From a candidate division FCPU426 bacterium (GTDB taxonomy: Bacteria > Oederibacteriota > Muellerivitia > Muellerivitales > Muellerivitaceae), in the NCBI GenBank assembly GCA_963719085.1, contig CAVRAL010000004.1:384001-448000 (forward strand): a stretch of 64,000 bases of DNA, written 5' to 3'. Numbering within the stretch: the first letter of the stretch is position 1; every line of letters begins with the position of its first letter. The position numbers and the translations under genes were made by a program. The notes below the pieces were generated by a model that was not told the origin of the DNA, did not search any database, and saw only the letters and a program-made list of their open reading frames with translations. Positions 43,703 to 52,160 of the stretch are shown in pieces.

Positions 43703-44173
43703 CTACCGCTTACGCAGGTCCTTAAAAAACTCGCTCAAAATCCGCGAACAGTCTTCTTTTAATATACCGCTTTCCACCAACACCCGGTGGTTCAGCTTGG
43801 GGTTCAAAAGGACCCTAGCCGTACTATCCACCGCTCCCGCTTTGGGGTCCGGGGTTCCATAGTAAACCGTCCGAACACGGGACAAAACCATGGCACCCGC
43901 GCACATCGTGCAGGGTTCCAAGGTCACGTATAAATCACAGTCGCTTAACCGCCAGTCGCTTCGCTTGGCCGAGGCCTTGCTCAAGGCCACCATTTCGGCG
44001 TGGACTAAGGCGCTTTTTTTGGCTTCCGTCAGGTTGTGTCCCCGGGCAATGATCTTCCCCTGATACACCACCACGGCTCCCACCGGCACTTCTTTTTTGA
44101 CCGCGGCTTTACGGGCTTCCCGCAGGGCCGCCTTCATAAACTTTTCGTGGGGATTTTTCAGCTGATTCCTCAC
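43703..44173 (-). CDS. tadA: tRNA adenosine(34) deaminase
   Basis: EVPVGAV, HAE, WRL....LYVTLEPCTMCAGA, DPKAGA, LNH. Confidence 0.92.
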   Translation of the reverse strand: MRNQLKNPHEKFMKAALREARKAAVKKEVPVGAVVVYQGKIIARGHNLTEAKKSALVHAEMVALSKASAKRSDWRLSDCDLYVTLEPCTMCAGAMVLSRVRTVYYGTPDPKAGAVDSTARVLLNPKLNHRVLVESGILKEDCSRILSEFFKDLRKR

Positions 44174-44314
44174 CGCTTCTTGAAAACCATCACCCCAGGG
44201 ACTCTCCTATATAGAAGAGACTGGGTATATTTTAAAAAAGAAAATGACGCGTCCCAAAGAACTACCATTTCCTCATTTTATGGCGGCGAAACCGCCACCC
44301 ATACAATGAGAAAA

Positions 44315-44391
44315 TGGTGCGCCTGGAGGGATTTGAACCCCCAACCCTCTGATCCGTAGTCAGATACTCTATCCAGTTGAGCTACAGGCGC
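44315..44391 (-). tRNA. tRNA-Arg(ACG)
   Basis: GCGCCTGTAGCTCAACTGGATAGAG, loop CTACGGA, CCA; 77 nt. Confidence 0.95.
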
Positions 44392-44608
44392 GATCCGCTC
44401 TTCTTGGGGCCAAGGCCCAAAGAAGAGCGGATATATTACCCAAAAGCCTATTTTTATCGCAAGTACAAAGGGATTTGTTTAAGGCAGCGGCCTGCGCCAA
44501 CTCGCGAGGGCTAACCCCGCCCTTAAAGCTGAAAAGTCGGGCTCTTGCGCTAATTTAGCCCCCATCCCTAGAGGATGGACGTCCGAAAAACCCCCGTAGT
44601 TGACAACT

Positions 44609-45577
44609 TCAGAGCCGCGACTGATCCGAAACTATCCCAATTTTTCGCAGCCATGCCTCCATCAATTGAGGCCATTCCGTAATGGGAAACTTTGTGCGAC
44701 GCAGTCCAAACCCATGCCCGCCATGCGCATATAAATGCATCTCCACGGGGACTCCGGCCTTCTTTAGGGCGATATCGTAAACCAAGGAATTGTTGACGTC
44801 GTCCACCGGGTCATCCTCCGCCTGCGCTAAAAACGTCGGCGGCGTCTGGCGGGTAATATTGGCTTGGATATCCGGATTCAACTCCCACTTATTACTTTGA
44901 GCGCAAAGATGCCCCGGGTAGAGGACCACCGCAAAATCCGGGCGGCAACTCTCTTTATCAGCCGCGTCCACAGCCGGATATAACCGCTCTTTAAAATGAG
45001 CGCTAATAACTGCCGCCAGATGCCCGCCGGCCGAAAAGCCAAGCACTCCTATTTTGCGGGGATCAATGTTCCATTCGGCGGCGTGAAAACGAACCAACCC
45101 CACTGTCCGTTGCGCATCTTCCAGCGCTGTCGAAATTTTCGGAACGACGAGGCGGTCAAGCCGCGAGTCATAATGTGGCCCCGAACCCGGCACGCGGTAT
45201 TTCAACAACACCGCGGTGATACCCCGGGACGCCAGCCAATCACAAACTTCCGTGCCTTCAAGATCAATGGCCAGAACATCGTAGCCTCCGCCAGGAAACA
45301 CAACGACCGCCACACCTCGGTTACTTCCCTTGGGGGGATAGATCGTCATGGTCGGCCTCGAAACATCACAAACCGCGACCCAAGGCTTTCCCGCGATCAA
45401 TGGATCGTTCCTGACCACGCAATATTCTGATCCTGGGACTGTCTGCGCGTCAGGCGCCGCCCCGGGCCAAATGGGTATTTGTCGATGACCTTGCGGCGGT
45501 TGCCAGACATTCGTCTGCGCCCACAAATTTCCAACCGCCAATAAAAAAACCATAGCCGCAATTAAAGGTTTTATCAA
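44609..45577 (-). CDS. Secreted alpha/beta hydrolase (acetyl esterase-like)
   Basis: PGGGY, GFSAGGH, EDDPVD, GGHGFG. Confidence 0.85.
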   Translation of the reverse strand: MIKPLIAAMVFLLAVGNLWAQTNVWQPPQGHRQIPIWPGAAPDAQTVPGSEYCVVRNDPLIAGKPWVAVCDVSRPTMTIYPPKGSNRGVAVVVFPGGGYDVLAIDLEGTEVCDWLASRGITAVLLKYRVPGSGPHYDSRLDRLVVPKISTALEDAQRTVGLVRFHAAEWNIDPRKIGVLGFSAGGHLAAVISAHFKERLYPAVDAADKESCRPDFAVVLYPGHLCAQSNKWELNPDIQANITRQTPPTFLAQAEDDPVDDVNNSLVYDIALKKAGVPVEMHLYAHGGHGFGLRRTKFPITEWPQLMEAWLRKIGIVSDQSRL

Positions 45578-45648
45578 ATTCCCACCATTTTTACGGCTCG
45601 TCTATTCCGGGTCCCTTTCGCGGACGAGGCCGTCCCTTACCTTAACGC

Positions 45649-46401
45649 TTATTGAAGCAGGACAAGCCAATTCGGCAGGGCCTGAATCAAAAAACCAATA
45701 ATGGCGAAAAACAATCCTACTATCGACATAACGCGCCGCGACATATGCTCCATCCGCCATTCCACCCAGGGGGTAAAGCAAGTGATAAAAAAACTGGAAA
45801 TCCAGATCGTCAAACCCACCCGCCAGAAAGAGGCCAATGGAAAAGTTGAGGTCGTCACCCCAGAAACCAAGTAACAAGAAATCCAAAATGAGAGACCAGC
45901 GCCTATCCCCCTTGCCACCGCCAGCCAAAAAGACGCGGGCCTGAATACCACCAGTTGAGGGCTTAATTCACGCTCTTTCGTCGTCGACCAGCCTAAAAAA
46001 TAAGTGCCGGTTAAAAATAGGCCGTTGAAAAGAAAAAACAAACCAGCGATCGGGCCGTTGGTGATCGTCCACAAAGCCAACGCTAAAACAAACGCCCTAG
46101 CCAGCGCCAGCAACACCATCGTGGACCAACTCATCGGTTTACCCTTCGTATGAATCCGTCGGGCTTCTTGATAATAGTCAACCCCCAGAATAATCCCCAT
46201 GCCTAAACCCGCGACCAGGCCGAACTTTAAACCCAACCCAAGACAAAAAGGGATTCCGTAGAGGAACATATAGGTGACCACGCGGGTCACACCGGCCAAG
46301 GGGCCATCTTTTCCCCCCAAAAGGTCGTAGGTCAAATAAAGTCCGCCCAGTGCCCCTAGGAGCGATCCGCCCAAATTGCACCAAGCTTCCCAATGCTGCA
46401 T
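45649..46401 (-). CDS. Multi-pass membrane hypothetical protein
   Basis: GAGGTG RBS; several hydrophobic helices. Confidence 0.7.
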   Translation of the reverse strand: MQHWEAWCNLGGSLLGALGGLYLTYDLLGGKDGPLAGVTRVVTYMFLYGIPFCLGLGLKFGLVAGLGMGIILGVDYYQEARRIHTKGKPMSWSTMVLLALARAFVLALALWTITNGPIAGLFFLFNGLFLTGTYFLGWSTTKERELSPQLVVFRPASFWLAVARGIGAGLSFWISCYLVSGVTTSTFPLASFWRVGLTIWISSFFITCFTPWVEWRMEHMSRRVMSIVGLFFAIIGFLIQALPNWLVLLQ

Positions 46402-46540
46402 GCCACACCTCTTCGGTGAATTTTGAATAACGGTTTTCCAATTCGGGCAAACCGTTCCATCATTTTGCTTTTGGATACCGTAGTAAAACTACACCCGAAA
46501 CCAATAAACCAGGAACGGTGAACCTAGTTTTCTTTTCCCT

Positions 46541-46993
46541 CTAAATATTGAATTGGCGGAGATGATGATCCAGGTGTTTGTATTCTAAGACGGCCCACTC
46601 CATGGGCGTAAGCCGGCCAAAAAAGGGATGGGGATGGCTCGTACAAGCCGAAGTCCCGCCTGAAACGAACCGGTCGATGAGCGAACAAAGACGCTCGCTC
46701 TCCACCGCTAGGTCGTGTTCGCCGCTCACGACCAACTCATCCAATGTAGGCGTATTGCGGCGAAATTCATCATCATTTCCTAAGACCATGGGTTTAATCA
46801 TGAAGCCTATCAATCGCCCGACCAACTTGCGGCGTGGCCTGATCTCACCCAGGGCCATCTCCAGTCCCAATACGCAATGCGCCATAACTTGGGCCGGACT
46901 CCGTTTTCCCCATTGCCGAACACTGTCGGGCCTCAGCTTATCAATCCGCCGCTTTACTTCATCCGCAAGAGCGACATCAAACAGGTTTTTCAT
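46541..46993 (-). CDS. DUF1569/DinB-like protein
   Basis: WGK.S..Q...HC, HPFFG.LT..EW....KHLDHHLRQF. Confidence 0.85.
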   Translation of the reverse strand: MKNLFDVALADEVKRRIDKLRPDSVRQWGKRSPAQVMAHCVLGLEMALGEIRPRRKLVGRLIGFMIKPMVLGNDDEFRRNTPTLDELVVSGEHDLAVESERLCSLIDRFVSGGTSACTSHPHPFFGRLTPMEWAVLEYKHLDHHLRQFNI

Positions 46994-47043
46994 TTGAGTT
47001 TTCTCCGCGAAAGATGAGTGCTTTTCGCTTGTTCAATCCGGGC

Positions 47044-47094
47044 CTCCATTCCGTACGATTCGCAAACCGTGAAGTTTGAGTTAATTCAACAAAA
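47044..47094 (-). repeat. 51-bp intergenic direct repeat R1
   Basis: CTCCATTCCGTACGATTCGCAAACCGTGAAGTTTGAGTTAATTCAACAAAA; 38/51 identical to R2, ungapped (hand count). Confidence 0.8.
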
Positions 47095-47116
47095 TGTCTA
47101 TCAAGCGACGAAGTGC

Positions 47117-47365
47117 TTAATCGTCACTATTATTGGTGAATTTTTTCCTGACAATTGAATCAATAATCCAAGCCAAAAGATAACCTCCAACAATCCCGGC
47201 AAAACCACTCCAACTCATAGGCCAGTGTCCCGTGGTAATTTTTAAAATCACCCAGTAAAAAATCATAATAAAAATCCAAAGAAGAAAACCAAACGCGGAC
47301 ACGTCTAATACACTGGGGCCCGTCCCCGGAGCTATCACGCCTTTTTGATTTAATTTTCTAATCAC
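47117..47365 (-). CDS. Small two-TM membrane protein
   Basis: 82 aa, two hydrophobic segments, AGGA RBS. Confidence 0.6.
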   Translation of the reverse strand: MIRKLNQKGVIAPGTGPSVLDVSAFGFLLWIFIMIFYWVILKITTGHWPMSWSGFAGIVGGYLLAWIIDSIVRKKFTNNSDD

Positions 47366-47453
47366 GGGTTTTTCCTGGAAAATTTAATCAGATAAATTAG
47401 TTCGAACTATTTAGTCTATAGCAACCCGCCAAAGAACCTTTTTCTCAAAAAGC

Positions 47454-48191
47454 TTAAAGAATCCCTTCAAAACAATCCAAGATGGGGGCTTTGATAGGCA
47501 TGAAATAAGCGTTCCCGTCCACCGAAGCGATTCGGCTCAAAACGCTTTTCGCGAAATCACGATTCCAATCTAAGGTCGGAGTGAAGTTTTTAGGAAAAAC
47601 GGCCTTATTTCTTGTCTCCCAATAATTTTTGGAGTTCGCCGTTAAAACCGGGGAAACGCCCCAAAACACTTCGTAGGATTGGAGCAATTCGAAATAGATG
47701 TCAAAAAGGCGGATATCGAAAAAAGGTTGGGTGAAAAAACCATCCGCGCCTGCCTCCCGTTTGGCATGCGCGTAATCCAGTTCTTTGTGAATTCCCTGTC
47801 GATAAGGATCGAAAGCCGCATAAATCTTAATTTCCGGAATTTCTTTCTTGAATTTCTTGATTACGTCCAAAACATCCGAGGGATATATCTTTCTGGAGAT
47901 ATCCTGGGGAATATCGCCGCTAATCAAGACAATTTCCTTCAAGTGATTTTCCTTAAGAAAGGCGGCCATGGGCAACGGTTCATTCAAATTAATGTCAACG
48001 GCCCGAATGTGGGGTATGGCTTTTTCAAAAAAAGGTTTCACATATCCGCAAGCGACCCAACTTCTCAAATCAAACCGCAATAAATCAGGAATGTTTATCG
48101 CGGTTACTTTTTTAAGATTTTTCGAGATCTTTTCGACTTCGTCCAATATGGACTCTTTATTTCTTGGCACCAATTCCAATGAAATTCTCAT
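47454..48191 (-). CDS. Short methylenetetrahydrofolate reductase (MetF-like)
   Basis: ISLELVP, INIPD, IPHIRA, SGD.P, K..AGADGFFTQPFFD. Confidence 0.75.
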   Translation of the reverse strand: MRISLELVPRNKESILDEVEKISKNLKKVTAINIPDLLRFDLRSWVACGYVKPFFEKAIPHIRAVDINLNEPLPMAAFLKENHLKEIVLISGDIPQDISRKIYPSDVLDVIKKFKKEIPEIKIYAAFDPYRQGIHKELDYAHAKREAGADGFFTQPFFDIRLFDIYFELLQSYEVFWGVSPVLTANSKNYWETRNKAVFPKNFTPTLDWNRDFAKSVLSRIASVDGNAYFMPIKAPILDCFEGIL

Positions 48192-48200
48192 TCAATAACT

Positions 48201-48251
48201 CCTCATCCCGTACGATTTTCGAACCGTTAAATTCGAGGTAATTCGATGAAA
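48201..48251 (-). repeat. 51-bp intergenic direct repeat R2
   Basis: CCTCATCCCGTACGATTTTCGAACCGTTAAATTCGAGGTAATTCGATGAAA. Confidence 0.85.
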
Positions 48252-48326
48252 AAACTTATAAAGACGGGCAGACGTGAAACGGTTCTATTGTTTTAATCAA
48301 AATTTGTTACCGATCATATTATTCGC

Positions 48327-49412
48327 CTATTTCTTTTGTTGGCTTTCCCAAGTTAAATAAGTTTTAGATTGAAGGATACTTTTAAACTGAGGGTCGCTAT
48401 TTATAGTCTTTTCATAGGCAGGATTAAGTTTGATTACTTTCCCAATTTCGGACACAGCTCCTTGCTCATCAAATTCGGCAAAATCCGCCAAAGCCAAATT
48501 GTAGTGACCCATAATATAATCCGGGTTAATTTGAACAGCCTTTTCAAGAGCATTTTTAGCGGCGTTAGATGCTCCCGCCCTTAGATAGGCGTAACCTAAA
48601 TATTGCCAGGCGGAATAATCGCTTGGATGATCCTGCAGATCCAACTTATATTCTTGAACGGCACAATTATATTCATGTTGATGGAAATATTTTTTTCCAC
48701 GCGCCAAATGATCTAAAGATTCGTCTGGATCACTACAACCTTCCAATAATTCTTTTTCGTCCAATGGTTTCCAATAACCCATAAACCTCATCTCGTTTTT
48801 GTCCCAAAGCTTTTTTCCTTCATCCGAAACAATCTCCAATGCATCTTGTTCCGGGAGGTAAACAAAATGTGGTTCTGTACCTGGGCCGCCTTTTCCAATC
48901 CATTCAACTGTGCTTATTGCGTTTATTATTTTTGATCCATTCCAATAATCGAACTCCCATTCGGCTGCACCGGCCGCTAAACCCCATTCAGTTTCATATC
49001 CCCAAAAAAAGGGAAAACCTTTCTTTTCCAAACCGAAAACCAAGTTATCGCCATAGCCCGAATCTTCACTATCAAGTAGTTTTCCCGTTTCATCCAAAAT
49101 GAAAACTTTGTTTTTTGCTCCATCGAAACGGACGAGCGAAATAATTTCAAATTTACCATCCTGGTTTAAATCCGCTAAATAAGATATTACTGACTTCATT
49201 TGCCCATCGGACGAAATATTTTTGGTGATCAATTCTGTAAAATTGTCGATTTCGACTTTTTTTCCACTATTGTCAAAAAGAACCAAACTCTTATTAGAGT
49301 CGTCACTGTCTAATTCAACACCTAATAAACCGTTAACCGAGGCTCTTACCAAAAGCGGAATCATTAAAAAAATAATCAACCCGGTCAAAAAATAAATTTT
49401 GAAGACTTTCAT
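48327..49412 (-). CDS. Secreted protein with FG-GAP-like motif and C-terminal TPRs
   Basis: Signal peptide from ATG 49412; ADLNQDGKFEI; AWQYLGYAY, GHYNLA. Confidence 0.75.
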   Translation of the reverse strand: MKVFKIYFLTGLIIFLMIPLLVRASVNGLLGVELDSDDSNKSLVLFDNSGKKVEIDNFTELITKNISSDGQMKSVISYLADLNQDGKFEIISLVRFDGAKNKVFILDETGKLLDSEDSGYGDNLVFGLEKKGFPFFWGYETEWGLAAGAAEWEFDYWNGSKIINAISTVEWIGKGGPGTEPHFVYLPEQDALEIVSDEGKKLWDKNEMRFMGYWKPLDEKELLEGCSDPDESLDHLARGKKYFHQHEYNCAVQEYKLDLQDHPSDYSAWQYLGYAYLRAGASNAAKNALEKAVQINPDYIMGHYNLALADFAEFDEQGAVSEIGKVIKLNPAYEKTINSDPQFKSILQSKTYLTWESQQKK

Positions 49413-49424
49413 TACCAAATGACT

Positions 49425-49475
49425 CTCCATTACGTACGATTTGCGAACCATTAAATTCCAGGTTTTTCGATGAAA
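49425..49475 (-). repeat. 51-bp intergenic direct repeat R3
   Basis: CTCCATTACGTACGATTTGCGAACCATTAAATTCCAGGTTTTTCGATGAAA; 42/51 identical to R2 (hand count). Confidence 0.85.
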
Positions 49476-49499
49476 AAGGACGCCAATAAGAGGGGAATC

Positions 49500-49988
49500 T
49501 TATTTTTTAAAGTTCTTTTTAGGAATATAAAGAAAAGAACCTCCATCCCAATCCAAAATCATTTTATCCCCAGGGCCATCAACAACAAATGTGTATTTGT
49601 TATAGGGTTCGTCTGTTTTGAATTCGACAACGCGATCTGAAAACTTAAATCTTTTGGGATCAAGTGACCCTTTTTCGGTTGGGTCAAAATCTTCACATTT
49701 TTCAATCGGCATGACTTTTCCAGGATAAATAATTTTAAAATCAAATTTACGTGTTAGGCCATCGGTTAAATTAACAATATCGAATTTCATCACACCATTT
49801 TTAATTTTTGCAGTCTTACCAATCATTCCTTTTATGCCATTATCATCCCATGCCCCTATGTCCGGCTCGTCGCCATCAACGCAGACCCATTCACCATCTA
49901 AATTAATATTCAAAACATTAATATCCTTTTTTCTTGAACAAGAAACGATAACCAGGATTATCAGTAAAATAAGAGTGATTTCTTTCAC
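49500..49988 (-). CDS. Hypothetical lipoprotein
   Basis: GTG 49988 with GGAGG RBS; lipobox-like IVSC. Confidence 0.7.
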   Translation of the reverse strand: MKEITLILLIILVIVSCSRKKDINVLNINLDGEWVCVDGDEPDIGAWDDNGIKGMIGKTAKIKNGVMKFDIVNLTDGLTRKFDFKIIYPGKVMPIEKCEDFDPTEKGSLDPKRFKFSDRVVEFKTDEPYNKYTFVVDGPGDKMILDWDGGSFLYIPKKNFKK

Positions 49989-50192
49989 GATACCTCCCTG
50001 GGTTGGACTCGAGCCTTTTGAAACCCAAGTCATTTTATGTCCACTTTTAGGGGCTATAACGGAAAAATGACATGATTCCTTAAATCTCAGAAGCTTCAAA
50101 TCCAATTGGGGGTTGCGCGGTTGCGCTCATCGCAAAAAAAGCAGGCTCCCCGCACCGCGGCGGACAGCTTGGCCTTTGGTTGTAACGCTGGT

Positions 50193-52160
50193 TTAATGAA
50201 TAACGACTAGCCGGCCGGTAGCGACCCCGAGGGGTTTTATCAGATAAACAATATAAATCCCGCTGGCGACTTTTTGGCCGTAGGTGTTGGTTCCATCCCA
50301 GCTCAATGTTGTCAACGGCAGTGGTTGGGTTAAGGTTTCATCGAACAATGTCTTAATGTGCTCACCCGCCGAGTTGTAAATCCTCAAGGTCATCGGACCA
50401 AAATATTGGCCGGACGCGATCTTGATGCCGACTGTTCCATCGAGGGTTTCATTAAAGACATTTCTGGAAATCTCAAATACATCTCCTGAAACCGTCGGCG
50501 TCGGAGTCTCGGAGCTGATGGGTGTATGGACCGGCGTGACAGTGGCTGTCGCCGGCGGCGGGGTGGGCGTAAGCGTAGGTGTTATGAGAGGCACAATGGT
50601 CTCTGTCACGGTAGGCGTACCCGTAGGGGACAATGTTTTCGTCGAGGTTGGAGTGGCGCTGTTGGTGGCGGTGGGGGTTGACGTACTCGTGGCGGTTGGT
50701 ATGGCGGTATGGGTGGCCGTGTTGGTGGAGGTAACGGTGCAGGTGACGGTGTTGGTAAAAGTCGATGTACCTGTGGGAGTGCTGGTGCAGGTTGGTGTGG
50801 AAGAAGCCGTCGAGGTGCTGGTAGGTGAGTTCGTCGAGGTTGGAGTGGCGCTGCTGGTGGCCGTCAGCGTCGCGGTGGGGGTCGGCGTATTCGTGGCGGT
50901 TGGTGTCGCGGTATGGGTCGCTGTTTGGGTGGCGGTGGCCGTAGGACTGTTGGTCCAGGTAAAAGTGGGAGAAGCCGTGAAAGTGCTGGTGGGGGTTGGA
51001 ACGCAGCCGCTGAAAGTGATTGCCAGCGCCCGGGCGTTGCCGCTGACCAGCAGGTCGCTTTGGTTGTCGTCATCGTCATAGGGAAAACCATAAGCCAGAT
51101 TGTTCAGATTGACCGTATGAAAAAAGGCCGAGTAATAATTACAGGGAGCGGTTTGATAAAAGGCCGCGGGGTTGTTGAGGTTGGCCGCGTTGTCGAGAAC
51201 GTGGCGGTTAATGCCGGCGGCCATCACCACTTCCAACGCCAGCTCGGTGGGATTTCCGCTGGCGAAGACGCCGGAAGCGGCCAGCGCGTCCTGCGTGGTG
51301 GGATAGCCGACAGTGTAAGGCCCGCCCGGACCGGTAAAAGTCATCTGGCTTCCCGGGCCCGTCGTGGTGCCCGAGTAGGTGTTGCCCCCAACGCTGATGA
51401 CCAAAGGCTTCGACTGGTACTCGGTCCAGAGCTGGGAAATATAGCCGTCCAAGTAAGTGCCGTTGGCCCCGCCCGCCGCGAAAGTGCCGTCCGCGGGGGC
51501 CACGATCCGCGTTGAGCCCACCAGGGAATTGAAGATGGCCGCGCCCGGGATGGAGTTCATATAGGCCTCGTACTTGCTCACGATGTCGCTAGCGCAATCC
51601 GCGACGCCGCTGGCGCCGTTGAGGCCCCCGCCCACATTGTACAAACCCATGGTGTAGGCAATGCCGAACATATTCACCTGGGTGGTATTGCAGTAAATGT
51701 AATCACTGCCCTCGTCAAACTCCATCCAGTCGAAAACGGTATTGATGTTGGGGTCGCTTGGATTGCCGATATTGGGCTGTACGATGCCCGGCCCCGCCAC
51801 GATGGGCATGTTCAAGGGCGAGTAAAAAGAAAACCACATGCGGCCCGAGCCCATCACGGGCAACTGCAGTCCGGCGGGGCTTAACGCGTCGATCTGGGCC
51901 AGGGTCATGGTATAGCCGCTGGCGTTCTGGCCGGGCACAATGGCGTTCATCGTTCCACCCGGAGTGAGATAGGCATTGTTGGCCAACACACAGATGTAAA
52001 CCTGATTGTTGGGCACGGTCGTGTTATTGACGAACTGGCAGGTCATCACTTCCCCGCTATTAAGGGAGATGAGCTGGGCCCGGACCCCGGAGGCCGAAAG
52101 AAAAAGAAGACAACTCGAAAGCGCTGTCAAAGTGAATAGGCGCGCGGAAATTGAGACCAT
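50193..52160 (-). CDS. Secreted GH64 beta-1,3-glucanase-like protein with Thr/Pro linker and FlgD-like Ig domain
   Basis: SGRMWFS, NPSDPN...FDWMEF, NTTQV, NYYS.FFH, AYGFPYDD; TPT repeats; IYNSAGE.IK...WDG.N..G..VASGIY. Confidence 0.85.
   Translation of the reverse strand: MVSISARLFTLTALSSCLLFLSASGVRAQLISLNSGEVMTCQFVNNTTVPNNQVYICVLANNAYLTPGGTMNAIVPGQNASGYTMTLAQIDALSPAGLQLPVMGSGRMWFSFYSPLNMPIVAGPGIVQPNIGNPSDPNINTVFDWMEFDEGSDYIYCNTTQVNMFGIAYTMGLYNVGGGLNGASGVADCASDIVSKYEAYMNSIPGAAIFNSLVGSTRIVAPADGTFAAGGANGTYLDGYISQLWTEYQSKPLVISVGGNTYSGTTTGPGSQMTFTGPGGPYTVGYPTTQDALAASGVFASGNPTELALEVVMAAGINRHVLDNAANLNNPAAFYQTAPCNYYSAFFHTVNLNNLAYGFPYDDDDNQSDLLVSGNARALAITFSGCVPTPTSTFTASPTFTWTNSPTATATQTATHTATPTATNTPTPTATLTATSSATPTSTNSPTSTSTASSTPTCTSTPTGTSTFTNTVTCTVTSTNTATHTAIPTATSTSTPTATNSATPTSTKTLSPTGTPTVTETIVPLITPTLTPTPPPATATVTPVHTPISSETPTPTVSGDVFEISRNVFNETLDGTVGIKIASGQYFGPMTLRIYNSAGEHIKTLFDETLTQPLPLTTLSWDGTNTYGQKVASGIYIVYLIKPLGVATGRLVVIH

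Follow-up and report, generated by a model that had tools for sequence, protein, structure and literature searches.

A candidate cassette-type gene-insertion system with a tRNA-Asn-like head element and a conserved 54-nt junction element in the Muellerivitaceae

Among the systems known to store individual genes as cassettes, only integrons are well understood. A complete integron has an IntI-type integrase next to attI; its attC sites are imperfect inverted repeats, conserved in structure and variable in sequence; integron sites are recognised by their fold; and the cassettes usually rely on a single promoter at the array's head. CALINs, groups of attC sites that lack an integrase, are described as well (PMC4889954). 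The present work concerns a 64,000-nucleotide stretch of a candidate division FCPU426 bacterium of the family Muellerivitaceae (GenBank assembly GCA_963719085.1, contig CAVRAL010000004.1, positions 384,001 to 448,000; hereafter the window), in which unrelated AT-rich genes are punctuated by a junction element of about 54 nt, called M, and the first is preceded by a 22-nt head element, called T. Such loci, built as T-(ORF-M)n where ORF stands for an open reading frame, may belong to a cassette-type gene-insertion system specific to the family, a reading to which I give a probability of about 0.5.

An integron array or a CALIN would be the functionally closest known system. Like these, T-M arrays are tight and co-oriented, hold small, diverse and mostly unknown ORFs that include toxin-antitoxin genes, carry a repeated site in each intergenic gap and a distinct head site at one end, and differ in content between relatives at one and the same site. 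By contrast, M is conserved in sequence, lacks an inverted-repeat fold and carries a Shine-Dalgarno (SD) sequence, perhaps also a promoter, for the gene that follows; the head site copies a tRNA 3' end and is not attI; there is no IntI-type integrase; and T-M loci are many, small (1-8 cassettes) and situated between ordinary genes. The inserts are AT-rich, as in islands that target tRNA genes, and the T consensus reproduces the 22 nt that precede CCA in tRNA-Asn, an end that is also the apparent att repeat of a 32-kb integrase-bearing island in the same genome. T-M arrays, however, lie away from tRNA genes, contain no integrase, span 0.3-5 kb and have M as their right boundary. A further parallel is offered by reused promoters (PMC3575422), which are highly similar upstream regions of about 50 nt found before unrelated genes, within a genome and across genera. 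M is also a similar upstream region of about 50 nt before unrelated genes, but it marks the edges of compositionally foreign inserts and is paired with T in a fixed order.

The initial annotation of the window had reported three ungapped direct repeats spaced by 1157 and 1224 bp, and these were found again, with the same spacing, at 47037-47096, 48194-48253 and 49418-49477. A search of the source genome and its relatives, as the annotation had advised, identified them as copies of a family-wide element. The family sample comprised 31 genomes, namely the 3.04-Mb source genome (G000) and 30 others, and the outgroup sample 68 other genomes of the phylum. Run over the whole of G000, an nhmmer profile returned five full copies (E 3e-16 to 4e-14, far from what chance would give; the next, partial copy had an E value of 0.76), which occupy three unlinked loci: the window, C1:1074512 (L001) and C4:552829 (L002). 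A sequence-only model, R1, built from 46 copies (alignment A1), matched G000, 25 of the 30 other family genomes (1-14 copies each) and one of the 68 outgroup genomes (G039), where M lies within a toxin-antitoxin islet. Among the 30 other family genomes, 21 have a 17-nt core of M with at most one mismatch, as do 3 of 30 from other families. In the 46-copy alignment, conservation covers about 54 nt (positions -28 to +25, counted from GGTTCG), with none upstream of -32, and gives the consensus TTATnATCGAATTACCTCGAATTTnATGGTTCGCAAATCGTACGGAATGGGGAG.

The next start codon is located 29-36 nt past GGTTCG in 21-22 of the 51 listed copies, so the terminal GGGGAG of M serves there as the SD of the following gene. 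A GGAG/GAGG sequence resembling a ribosome-binding site (RBS), proposed earlier for the end of each window repeat, is present on the coding strand in all three. In copies 2 and 3 it precedes the start codon by 8-10 nt; copy 1, by contrast, is 42 nt from the DUF1569 start, which has its own SD. A co-oriented ORF ends within 40 nt of the 5' edge of M in 53 of 81 pattern hits, about 7 of which (in G000) are spurious, and four of seven apparent exceptions, once inspected, did have an abutting co-oriented ORF. Arrays can be very tight and co-oriented (8 copies in 4.8 kb in G014:C19, 6 copies in 2.6 kb in G003:C63), and no terminators occur between array units, where the gaps leave no room for them. 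The cassette genes are nearly all distinct, forming about 40 clusters: 37 of the 55 proteins encoded after M copies have no Pfam family, and the rest include parts of toxin-antitoxin systems. At other loci, the genes after the last M are often housekeeping genes (RodA/FtsW, RsmD, TrmO, NAD-epimerase, carbonic anhydrase, GH27, UxaC). Divergent from the head of the eight-unit array lies a gene for a ParB-like nuclease domain, read by eye (L049:5375-6400, G014:C19, plus strand).

At each of the three G000 loci, T (GGTTCGAGTCCAACCCGGGGAG), an element absent from the initial description of the window, precedes the first M by one ORF. At 22 of 22 positions its consensus agrees with the end of the tRNA-Asn(GTT) gene (C4:466500-466574) directly before CCA. 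In the loci fetched around M, the sample to which the linkage of T with M refers, T is followed by M on the same strand in 26 cases out of 26, after 189-883 nt that correspond to a single ORF of 59-278 residues. The ORFs in this position are mutually unrelated, apart from one weak pair. With up to three mismatches allowed, T is present in 1-10 copies in all 30 other family genomes and mostly in 0-2 copies elsewhere, and many of the family matches lie 280-1000 nt upstream of an R1 match. T and M share their ends, GGTTCG ... GGGGAG, and while T reproduces the tRNA-Asn end in full, the right-boundary M has just these two hexamers in common with T. In a Smith-Waterman comparison of M with any tRNA the score was 22, a value reached by 87 of 200 shuffles; overall similarity of M to a tRNA was therefore rejected, only the two ends resembling tRNA-Asn. 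M was likewise rejected as a tRNA-linked feature, since 39 of 40 loci have no tRNA gene, the sole one being a tRNA-Val in L001, about 3.2 kb upstream of M; the position of the window array beside tRNA-Arg, noted in the initial annotation, is thus incidental. A TGAAAT box upstream of T was discarded as a promoter for the locus of gene X (see below), where it forms the last codons of that gene.

T and the last M bound compositionally foreign, AT-rich DNA. Between these two elements the GC content of the segment is 31-45%, and that of its flanks about 50-53%. In the 20 loci with at least 300 nt on both sides, the upstream flank is GC-richer than the segment in every case (mean +16 points) and the downstream flank in 18 (mean +14 points). 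In the window, positions 47200-50000 have 34-43% GC against about 54% for the genome, and the block from 50015 to about 47040 averages 38%, between flanks of 54% and 51%. The seven genes described earlier are indeed co-oriented and unrelated, all lying on the minus strand, and a Pfam scan agreed with the gene list: an Abhydrolase_3 esterase, a membrane protein (no Pfam family), DUF1569/DinB_2, a small transmembrane protein, a protein resembling methylenetetrahydrofolate reductase (MTHFR), a tetratricopeptide repeat (TPR) protein and a lipoprotein. The proposed seven-gene cassette array, however, has to be reduced to three cassettes (four genes, about 47040-50015). The lipoprotein gene, the TPR gene and the MTHFR-like gene together with the small membrane protein gene look like foreign cassettes, whereas the DUF1569, membrane protein and esterase genes are read as resident because their GC content (about 51%) is normal. 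Window genes are found scattered in relatives as single-gene homology blocks.

Whether the genes between repeats vary, a check proposed at the outset, was examined in the relatives' loci fetched around M, and cassette content does differ at orthologous sites. Before a zinc-ribbon gene, G000 has T-256aa-M, whereas G005 has T-123aa-M-99aa-M-228aa-M (aa, amino-acid residues of each encoded ORF); in G025, a congener of G005 with the same flanks, there is no cassette and only a truncated string, CATGGTTCGCAAGGTTGGAG. Behind gene X, recognised by its conserved 3' end, G019 and G003 carry different cassettes and G024 has different DNA, of unread content. Homology between G019 and G003 begins exactly at the last base of T, and that between G019 and G024 extends 11 nt past T. 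T also follows the same gene X end in G004 and G002, and in G025 gene X is joined directly to the next gene. At an epimerase gene, G029 and G002 have different T-geneA-M units, G025 and G030 have T-geneA-M with unread cassette genes, and G000 has only a degenerate M-like relic. A cassette gene shared by G003 and G014 (MIDKPVRKK...) has kept its downstream M and preceding flank, while the upstream M subtype and the following gene differ. As judged from these alignments, homology between relatives breaks at the ends of T and M. Truncated M-like strings mark two cassette-free sites, GGTTCGCAAGGTTGGAG in L217 (G025:C19:148990-149010) and TTCGCAAGGATAAG in L236:2212-2245 (G000:C4:744160, downstream of gene X), and could be empty attachment sites or excision scars. 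Differing flanks prevented a clean empty-site comparison for RsmD, RodA and the epimerase (G000 against other genera) and for the MTHFR-like gene (G018 against G002).

Table 1. Location of the array components and neighbouring features (positions in the window unless loci are named)
Feature	Position	Strand	Remarks
Head element T (GGCTCGAGTCCAACCCAGGGAG)	49994..50015	-	20/22 nt match to tRNA-Asn(GTT) 3' end before CCA; lipoprotein gene (GTG start, 49988) has its GGGAGG as SD
Cassette 1, 162-aa lipoprotein-like ORF	49500..49988	-	No Pfam family; AT-rich
Junction element M, copy 3	49423..49477	-	Ends GGAGAG, 10 nt before the TPR gene start
Cassette 2, 361-aa TPR / FG-GAP-like secreted protein	48327..49412	-	Pfam; AT-rich
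Junction element M, copy 2	48199..48253	-	Ends GAGGAG, 8 nt before the MTHFR-like start
Cassette 3 gene 1, MTHFR-like, 245 aa	47454..48191	-	Orthologues, 80-89% nt identity, in six other genomes, in differing contexts
Cassette 3 gene 2, small membrane protein, 82 aa	47117..47365	-	Without an M of its own
Junction element M, copy 1 (GGTTTGCGAAT)	47044..47095	-	Last M; right edge of AT-rich block; most diverged copy
DUF1569, 250-aa membrane protein, alpha/beta-hydrolase esterase	44609..46993	-	GC about 51%; read as resident, downstream of array
Terminator-like hairpin and T run after GH64 gene	50141..50153	-	Upstream limit of the array's transcription unit
tRNA-Arg(ACG)	44315..44391	-	Adjacency to array incidental
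REP-like (repetitive extragenic palindromic) hairpin sites	L050, L065-L084 (G005, G014); inside M copies in L168, L173, L192, L195-L204, L211		

Could M be a known recombination site, either the attC of an integron or CALIN array or a dif/pdif module of the Xer type? Besides the array features listed above, the window copies resemble the outer XerD arm (GTTAAAT). In Xer dif sites, XerC and XerD arms surround a 6-nt core, and pdif modules alternate in orientation. The dif-like 11-6-11 layout initially proposed for the repeats breaks down in the family, where the arm positions -4 and -2 vary, and all copies of M are direct repeats; Xer dif and pdif were rejected on these grounds. A covarying dyad, proposed from the three window copies, is unsupported too: in the family alignment its left arm varies and its right arm is invariant. 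RNAalifold found 0 conserved pairs in 46 copies and hence no attC-like inverted repeat, M being conserved over 54 nt in sequence and not in structure. As stated in the initial annotation, neither an integrase nor attC exists in or beside the window array. The comparison with tyrosine recombinases that it had called for identified five PF00589 proteins in G000, none encoded in the window or near the three M loci. Three of the five, scanned against NCBIfam, were all below the integron-integrase cut-off (best 82 bits, against 265 for TIGR02249); the remaining two, outside that scan, are 62% and 60% identical to one of those scanned. M is thus extremely unlikely to be a site of either known type.

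Alternatively, M could act at the RNA level, as an intercistronic leader (for example an RNase E-type site, GA/AUUU, with a small hairpin and an SD) or as the site of an RNA-binding regulator, the promoter being upstream of T; this would be compatible with the cassette model. M does nearly always follow a co-oriented gene after a tiny gap devoid of a terminator, hairpin insertions are tolerated at one fixed point, and a possible GGUU-loop-AAYC hairpin, common to T and M just before the SD, can be drawn by eye. The RNAalifold result, on the other hand, argues against a conserved fold; Rfam has no match to M or T in window positions 44000-51000 (E up to 10) or in 12 other loci (E up to 1); and M pairs with 16S rRNA no better than shuffled sequences do (best run 11 nt, the median of 30 shuffles). 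I consider this explanation very unlikely, and M was rejected as a structured cis-regulatory RNA because it has neither a conserved structure in the 46 copies nor an Rfam match. Two other classes were tried and set aside. Repetitive extragenic palindromic (REP) sequences and bacterial interspersed mosaic elements were dismissed since M is not palindromic, its REP-like part being an optional insert. A sigma-54 promoter has the form GG-N10-GC (TGGCAC-N5-TTGC), and M has GT where GC is required at -12; G000 does have rpoN and canonical TGGCAC-N5-TTGCW sites elsewhere. A literature search for the motif string returned nothing related.

The possibility that M is a promoter deserves closer attention. 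Promoters for extracytoplasmic function (ECF) sigma factors, the consensus considered here being of the SigW or SigR/SigH type, have -35 and -10 boxes at a fixed spacing of 16-17 nt with a free spacer, and the operon of the cognate sigma and anti-sigma factors carries the same promoter. M has a GAAT-like -35 box and a CGT-like -10 box at that spacing, and its gene set is rich in small envelope proteins. In the 46-copy alignment, GAATTT at -10 to -5 and CGT at +10 to +12 are at fixed spacing, position 19 is a pyrimidine in all copies and position 20 a G in 42, as at a transcription start. A variant right half, B' (CGTTTAATCCGGGGAG), keeps the CGT-N7-GGGGAG spacing although its seven intervening nucleotides differ. 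The pattern (A/G)AA(C/T)-N16-CGTA put forward in the initial annotation is therefore present with a fitting geometry. What it leaves unexplained is a 14-nt spacer (GGTTCGCAAAT) and a downstream region that are nearly invariant, and 18 copies, from at least 10 genomes, with an insertion of 24-60 nt exactly between GCAAAT and CGT, both halves being intact. Moreover, the truncated G025 copy has no CGT at all. Most often, the insert in the long form of M is a hairpin that resembles a REP sequence (ATC-CYCCTNCGCTRAAGCTYCGGRGGAC-AGG), has covarying stems and gives 23 hits in G005 (mostly outside M), 5 in G014 and 0 in G000. Because it is dispersed elsewhere, it is read as an insertion into M rather than as part of an RNA fold, and the long form was rejected as a sign of RNA structure. 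The loop of this hairpin places TAAAG about 16 nt before GTACG and might substitute for the -35 box.

If M were simply an ECF-type promoter with a short leader, the spacer perhaps serving as a repressor site, the AT-rich genes would be the horizontally acquired targets of a plain regulon, and M would have no role in their movement. The fixed boxes, the start-like pyrimidine and G, and the spacing kept in B' suit this idea, as do about 11 ECF-size sigma genes in G000. So does the copy in G039 (L189:447-560, G039:C12), which is followed about 25 nt later by a strong intrinsic terminator (GGGCACACAG...CTGTGTGCCC and a T run), upstream of a ribbon-helix-helix antitoxin gene; this M-terminator unit could be a small RNA or an attenuator. 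Yet M was found upstream of none of the 17 sigma70-family genes of G000, the ECF genes included, and no sigma or anti-sigma factor is among the 55 proteins encoded downstream of M. G039 has M without the rest of the supposed regulon, and neither T, nor the T-ORF-M order, nor the GC boundaries are accounted for. The initial annotation had named a plain regulon with invariant array content as the outcome that would speak against it; instead, M is conserved over its full length, stands mostly before accessory genes and is associated with varying content. A plain regulon is accordingly judged unlikely. M may well contain a promoter, but the invariant spacer and the interrupted copies indicate that a promoter cannot be the whole explanation of M. 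A sigma-70 scan of the region gave 9 promoter-like sites, against 10.0 ± 3.0 in shuffles, and a search for a T7-like RNA polymerase had no PF00940 match, nor had the control genomes. A 279-residue FliA/sigma-28-like factor is encoded at G000:C1:526011-526850; the GAATTT-N16-CGTA match that precedes it lies within the end of the upstream gene and is probably due to chance.

Under the cassette-type reading, M would be the junction site of the insertion system. T would be placed just after an upstream resident gene or terminator, and would be followed by AT-rich ORFs, each ending in M, and then by a resident gene of normal GC content. Since the terminal GGGGAG would act as the SD of the next ORF, inserted genes as well as the displaced resident gene would keep an RBS, and the ECF-like boxes (GAAT-N17-CGT), whose predicted start is a pyrimidine followed by G, may provide an internal promoter. 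Cassettes would enter and leave by site-specific recombination at GGTTCG...GGGGAG. The identity of T with the tRNA-Asn 3' end points to a tyrosine integrase, which would have to act in trans, since the arrays themselves encode no recombinase. A candidate comes from a stretch of about 32 kb outside the window (G000:C4:466500-498550), which starts with the tRNA-Asn(GTT) gene; the tRNA end matched by T recurs at C4:498529, at least 50 nt of the 3' part of this gene are repeated, ending at 498553, and a tyrosine integrase gene (497336-498439) lies just before the repeat. The segment C4:466500-498553 looks like a classical integrative island with the tRNA-Asn end as att repeat. Close homologues of its integrase occur in 25 of 30 family genomes (1-10 each, 53-69% identity). 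Outside the family, homologues of at least 50% identity are found in G035, as fragments in G031 and G050, and in G039, the sole outside genome with M. This circumstantial evidence would make the tRNA-Asn-type tyrosine integrase family the best candidate recombinase. A fuller picture, which I regard as tentative and somewhat doubtful, is that of an integron-analogous capture platform, with a tRNA-Asn mimic as head site, 54-nt cassette-end sites that bring an RBS and perhaps a promoter, and expanded, trans-acting integrases (up to 10 per genome), so that insertion would never silence a neighbour. The initial annotation had pictured a non-integron cassette system whose site carries its own expression signals. 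From that proposal, the repeat as boundary of AT-rich inserts, the varying content and the lack of an integrase and attC are retained, while the dif layout, the dyad, the tRNA-Arg link and the extent of seven cassettes are given up.

Accretion in the absence of a dedicated system would dispense with the integrase: T and M would be expression signals, and the 54-nt repeats would provide portable homology for RecA-type or homology-facilitated recombination after transfer. Synteny does break in or at M with conservation on both sides, the right 18 nt of M are somewhat more alike within one genome (identity 0.74) than between genomes (0.63), and no recombinase is linked to the arrays. However, a 22-nt tRNA 3' end such as T is a hallmark of integrase attachment sites and not of promoters, the 6-nt ends shared by T and M are too short for homologous exchange, and the units are packed tightly and precisely across many genera. 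I therefore take accretion of this kind to be quite unlikely.

Several observations nevertheless weigh against the cassette-type reading. No recombinase gene was seen in or beside any array examined, nor was a circular or excised form seen; M lacks the inverted-repeat structure of attC; and the crossover point is not locatable. The island integrase does not track M strictly, G006 and G014 having M without a match and G011 and G017 a match without M. The linkage of T to M was ascertained from M-centred loci, and G011 has five T matches and no M. The excess of within-genome over between-genome similarity of M is only modest, and a view in which M is nothing but an expression signal also predicts M beside start codons. 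The truncated strings at both 'empty' sites (the zinc-ribbon gene of G025 and gene X of G000) are predicted by neither simple crossover model. Finally, some indels between congeners end away from T and M, and a 1465-nt difference between G020 and G025 includes two genes of normal GC content.

Other observations concern the surroundings of the array. A 393-nt contig of metagenome run X3, about 88% identical to the window, joins position 44602 directly to 50224, so that a relative lacks the whole seven-gene block 44603-50223 between the GH64 and tRNA-Arg flanks, which speaks for the cassette-type reading; the same run also contains pieces of the block at 96-99% identity. In G005 (C114:43891-45681), an integrase gene of the expanded family comes after a TadA-like gene and tRNA-Arg, in the place that the esterase takes in G000, and the tRNA-Arg side of this locus seems to be a variable hotspot. 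The GH64 beta-1,3-glucanase gene (50193-52160) encodes a Thr/Pro-rich low-complexity linker whose DNA, at 50491-50999, consists of several families of periodic repeats of 12-48 bp. A different element, a 28-bp palindrome (TGTCCACGAC-GGGGACCC-GTCGTGGACA), brackets MTHFR-like orthologues without M in G010, G004, G002 and G012 (L053-L056, L186). It occurs in G000 at C1:1319787, 1333730, 1335645, 1337005 and 1337682 (L215), where it punctuates an island with an integrase, HNH, helicase, HATPase and methylase defence genes, an ion channel, TetR, TPR and BrnT/BrnA genes. This palindrome could represent either another boundary element or a family of terminators.

Should the recombination part of the proposal prove wrong, T-(ORF-M)n remains a clear marker, specific to the family, that divides foreign from resident genes. 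If the proposal is true, cassette capture would have evolved more than once, here under different rules: junctions defined by sequence, a head site derived from a tRNA, numerous small platforms in each genome and translation signals that the units bring along. Such a system would also show how genes can be inserted without polar effects on their neighbours, and its units would be compact natural parts of the 'insulated expression cassette' type. For the organisms themselves, it would open a way into the accessory genes of an uncultured soil lineage, which code mostly for small envelope proteins of unknown function.

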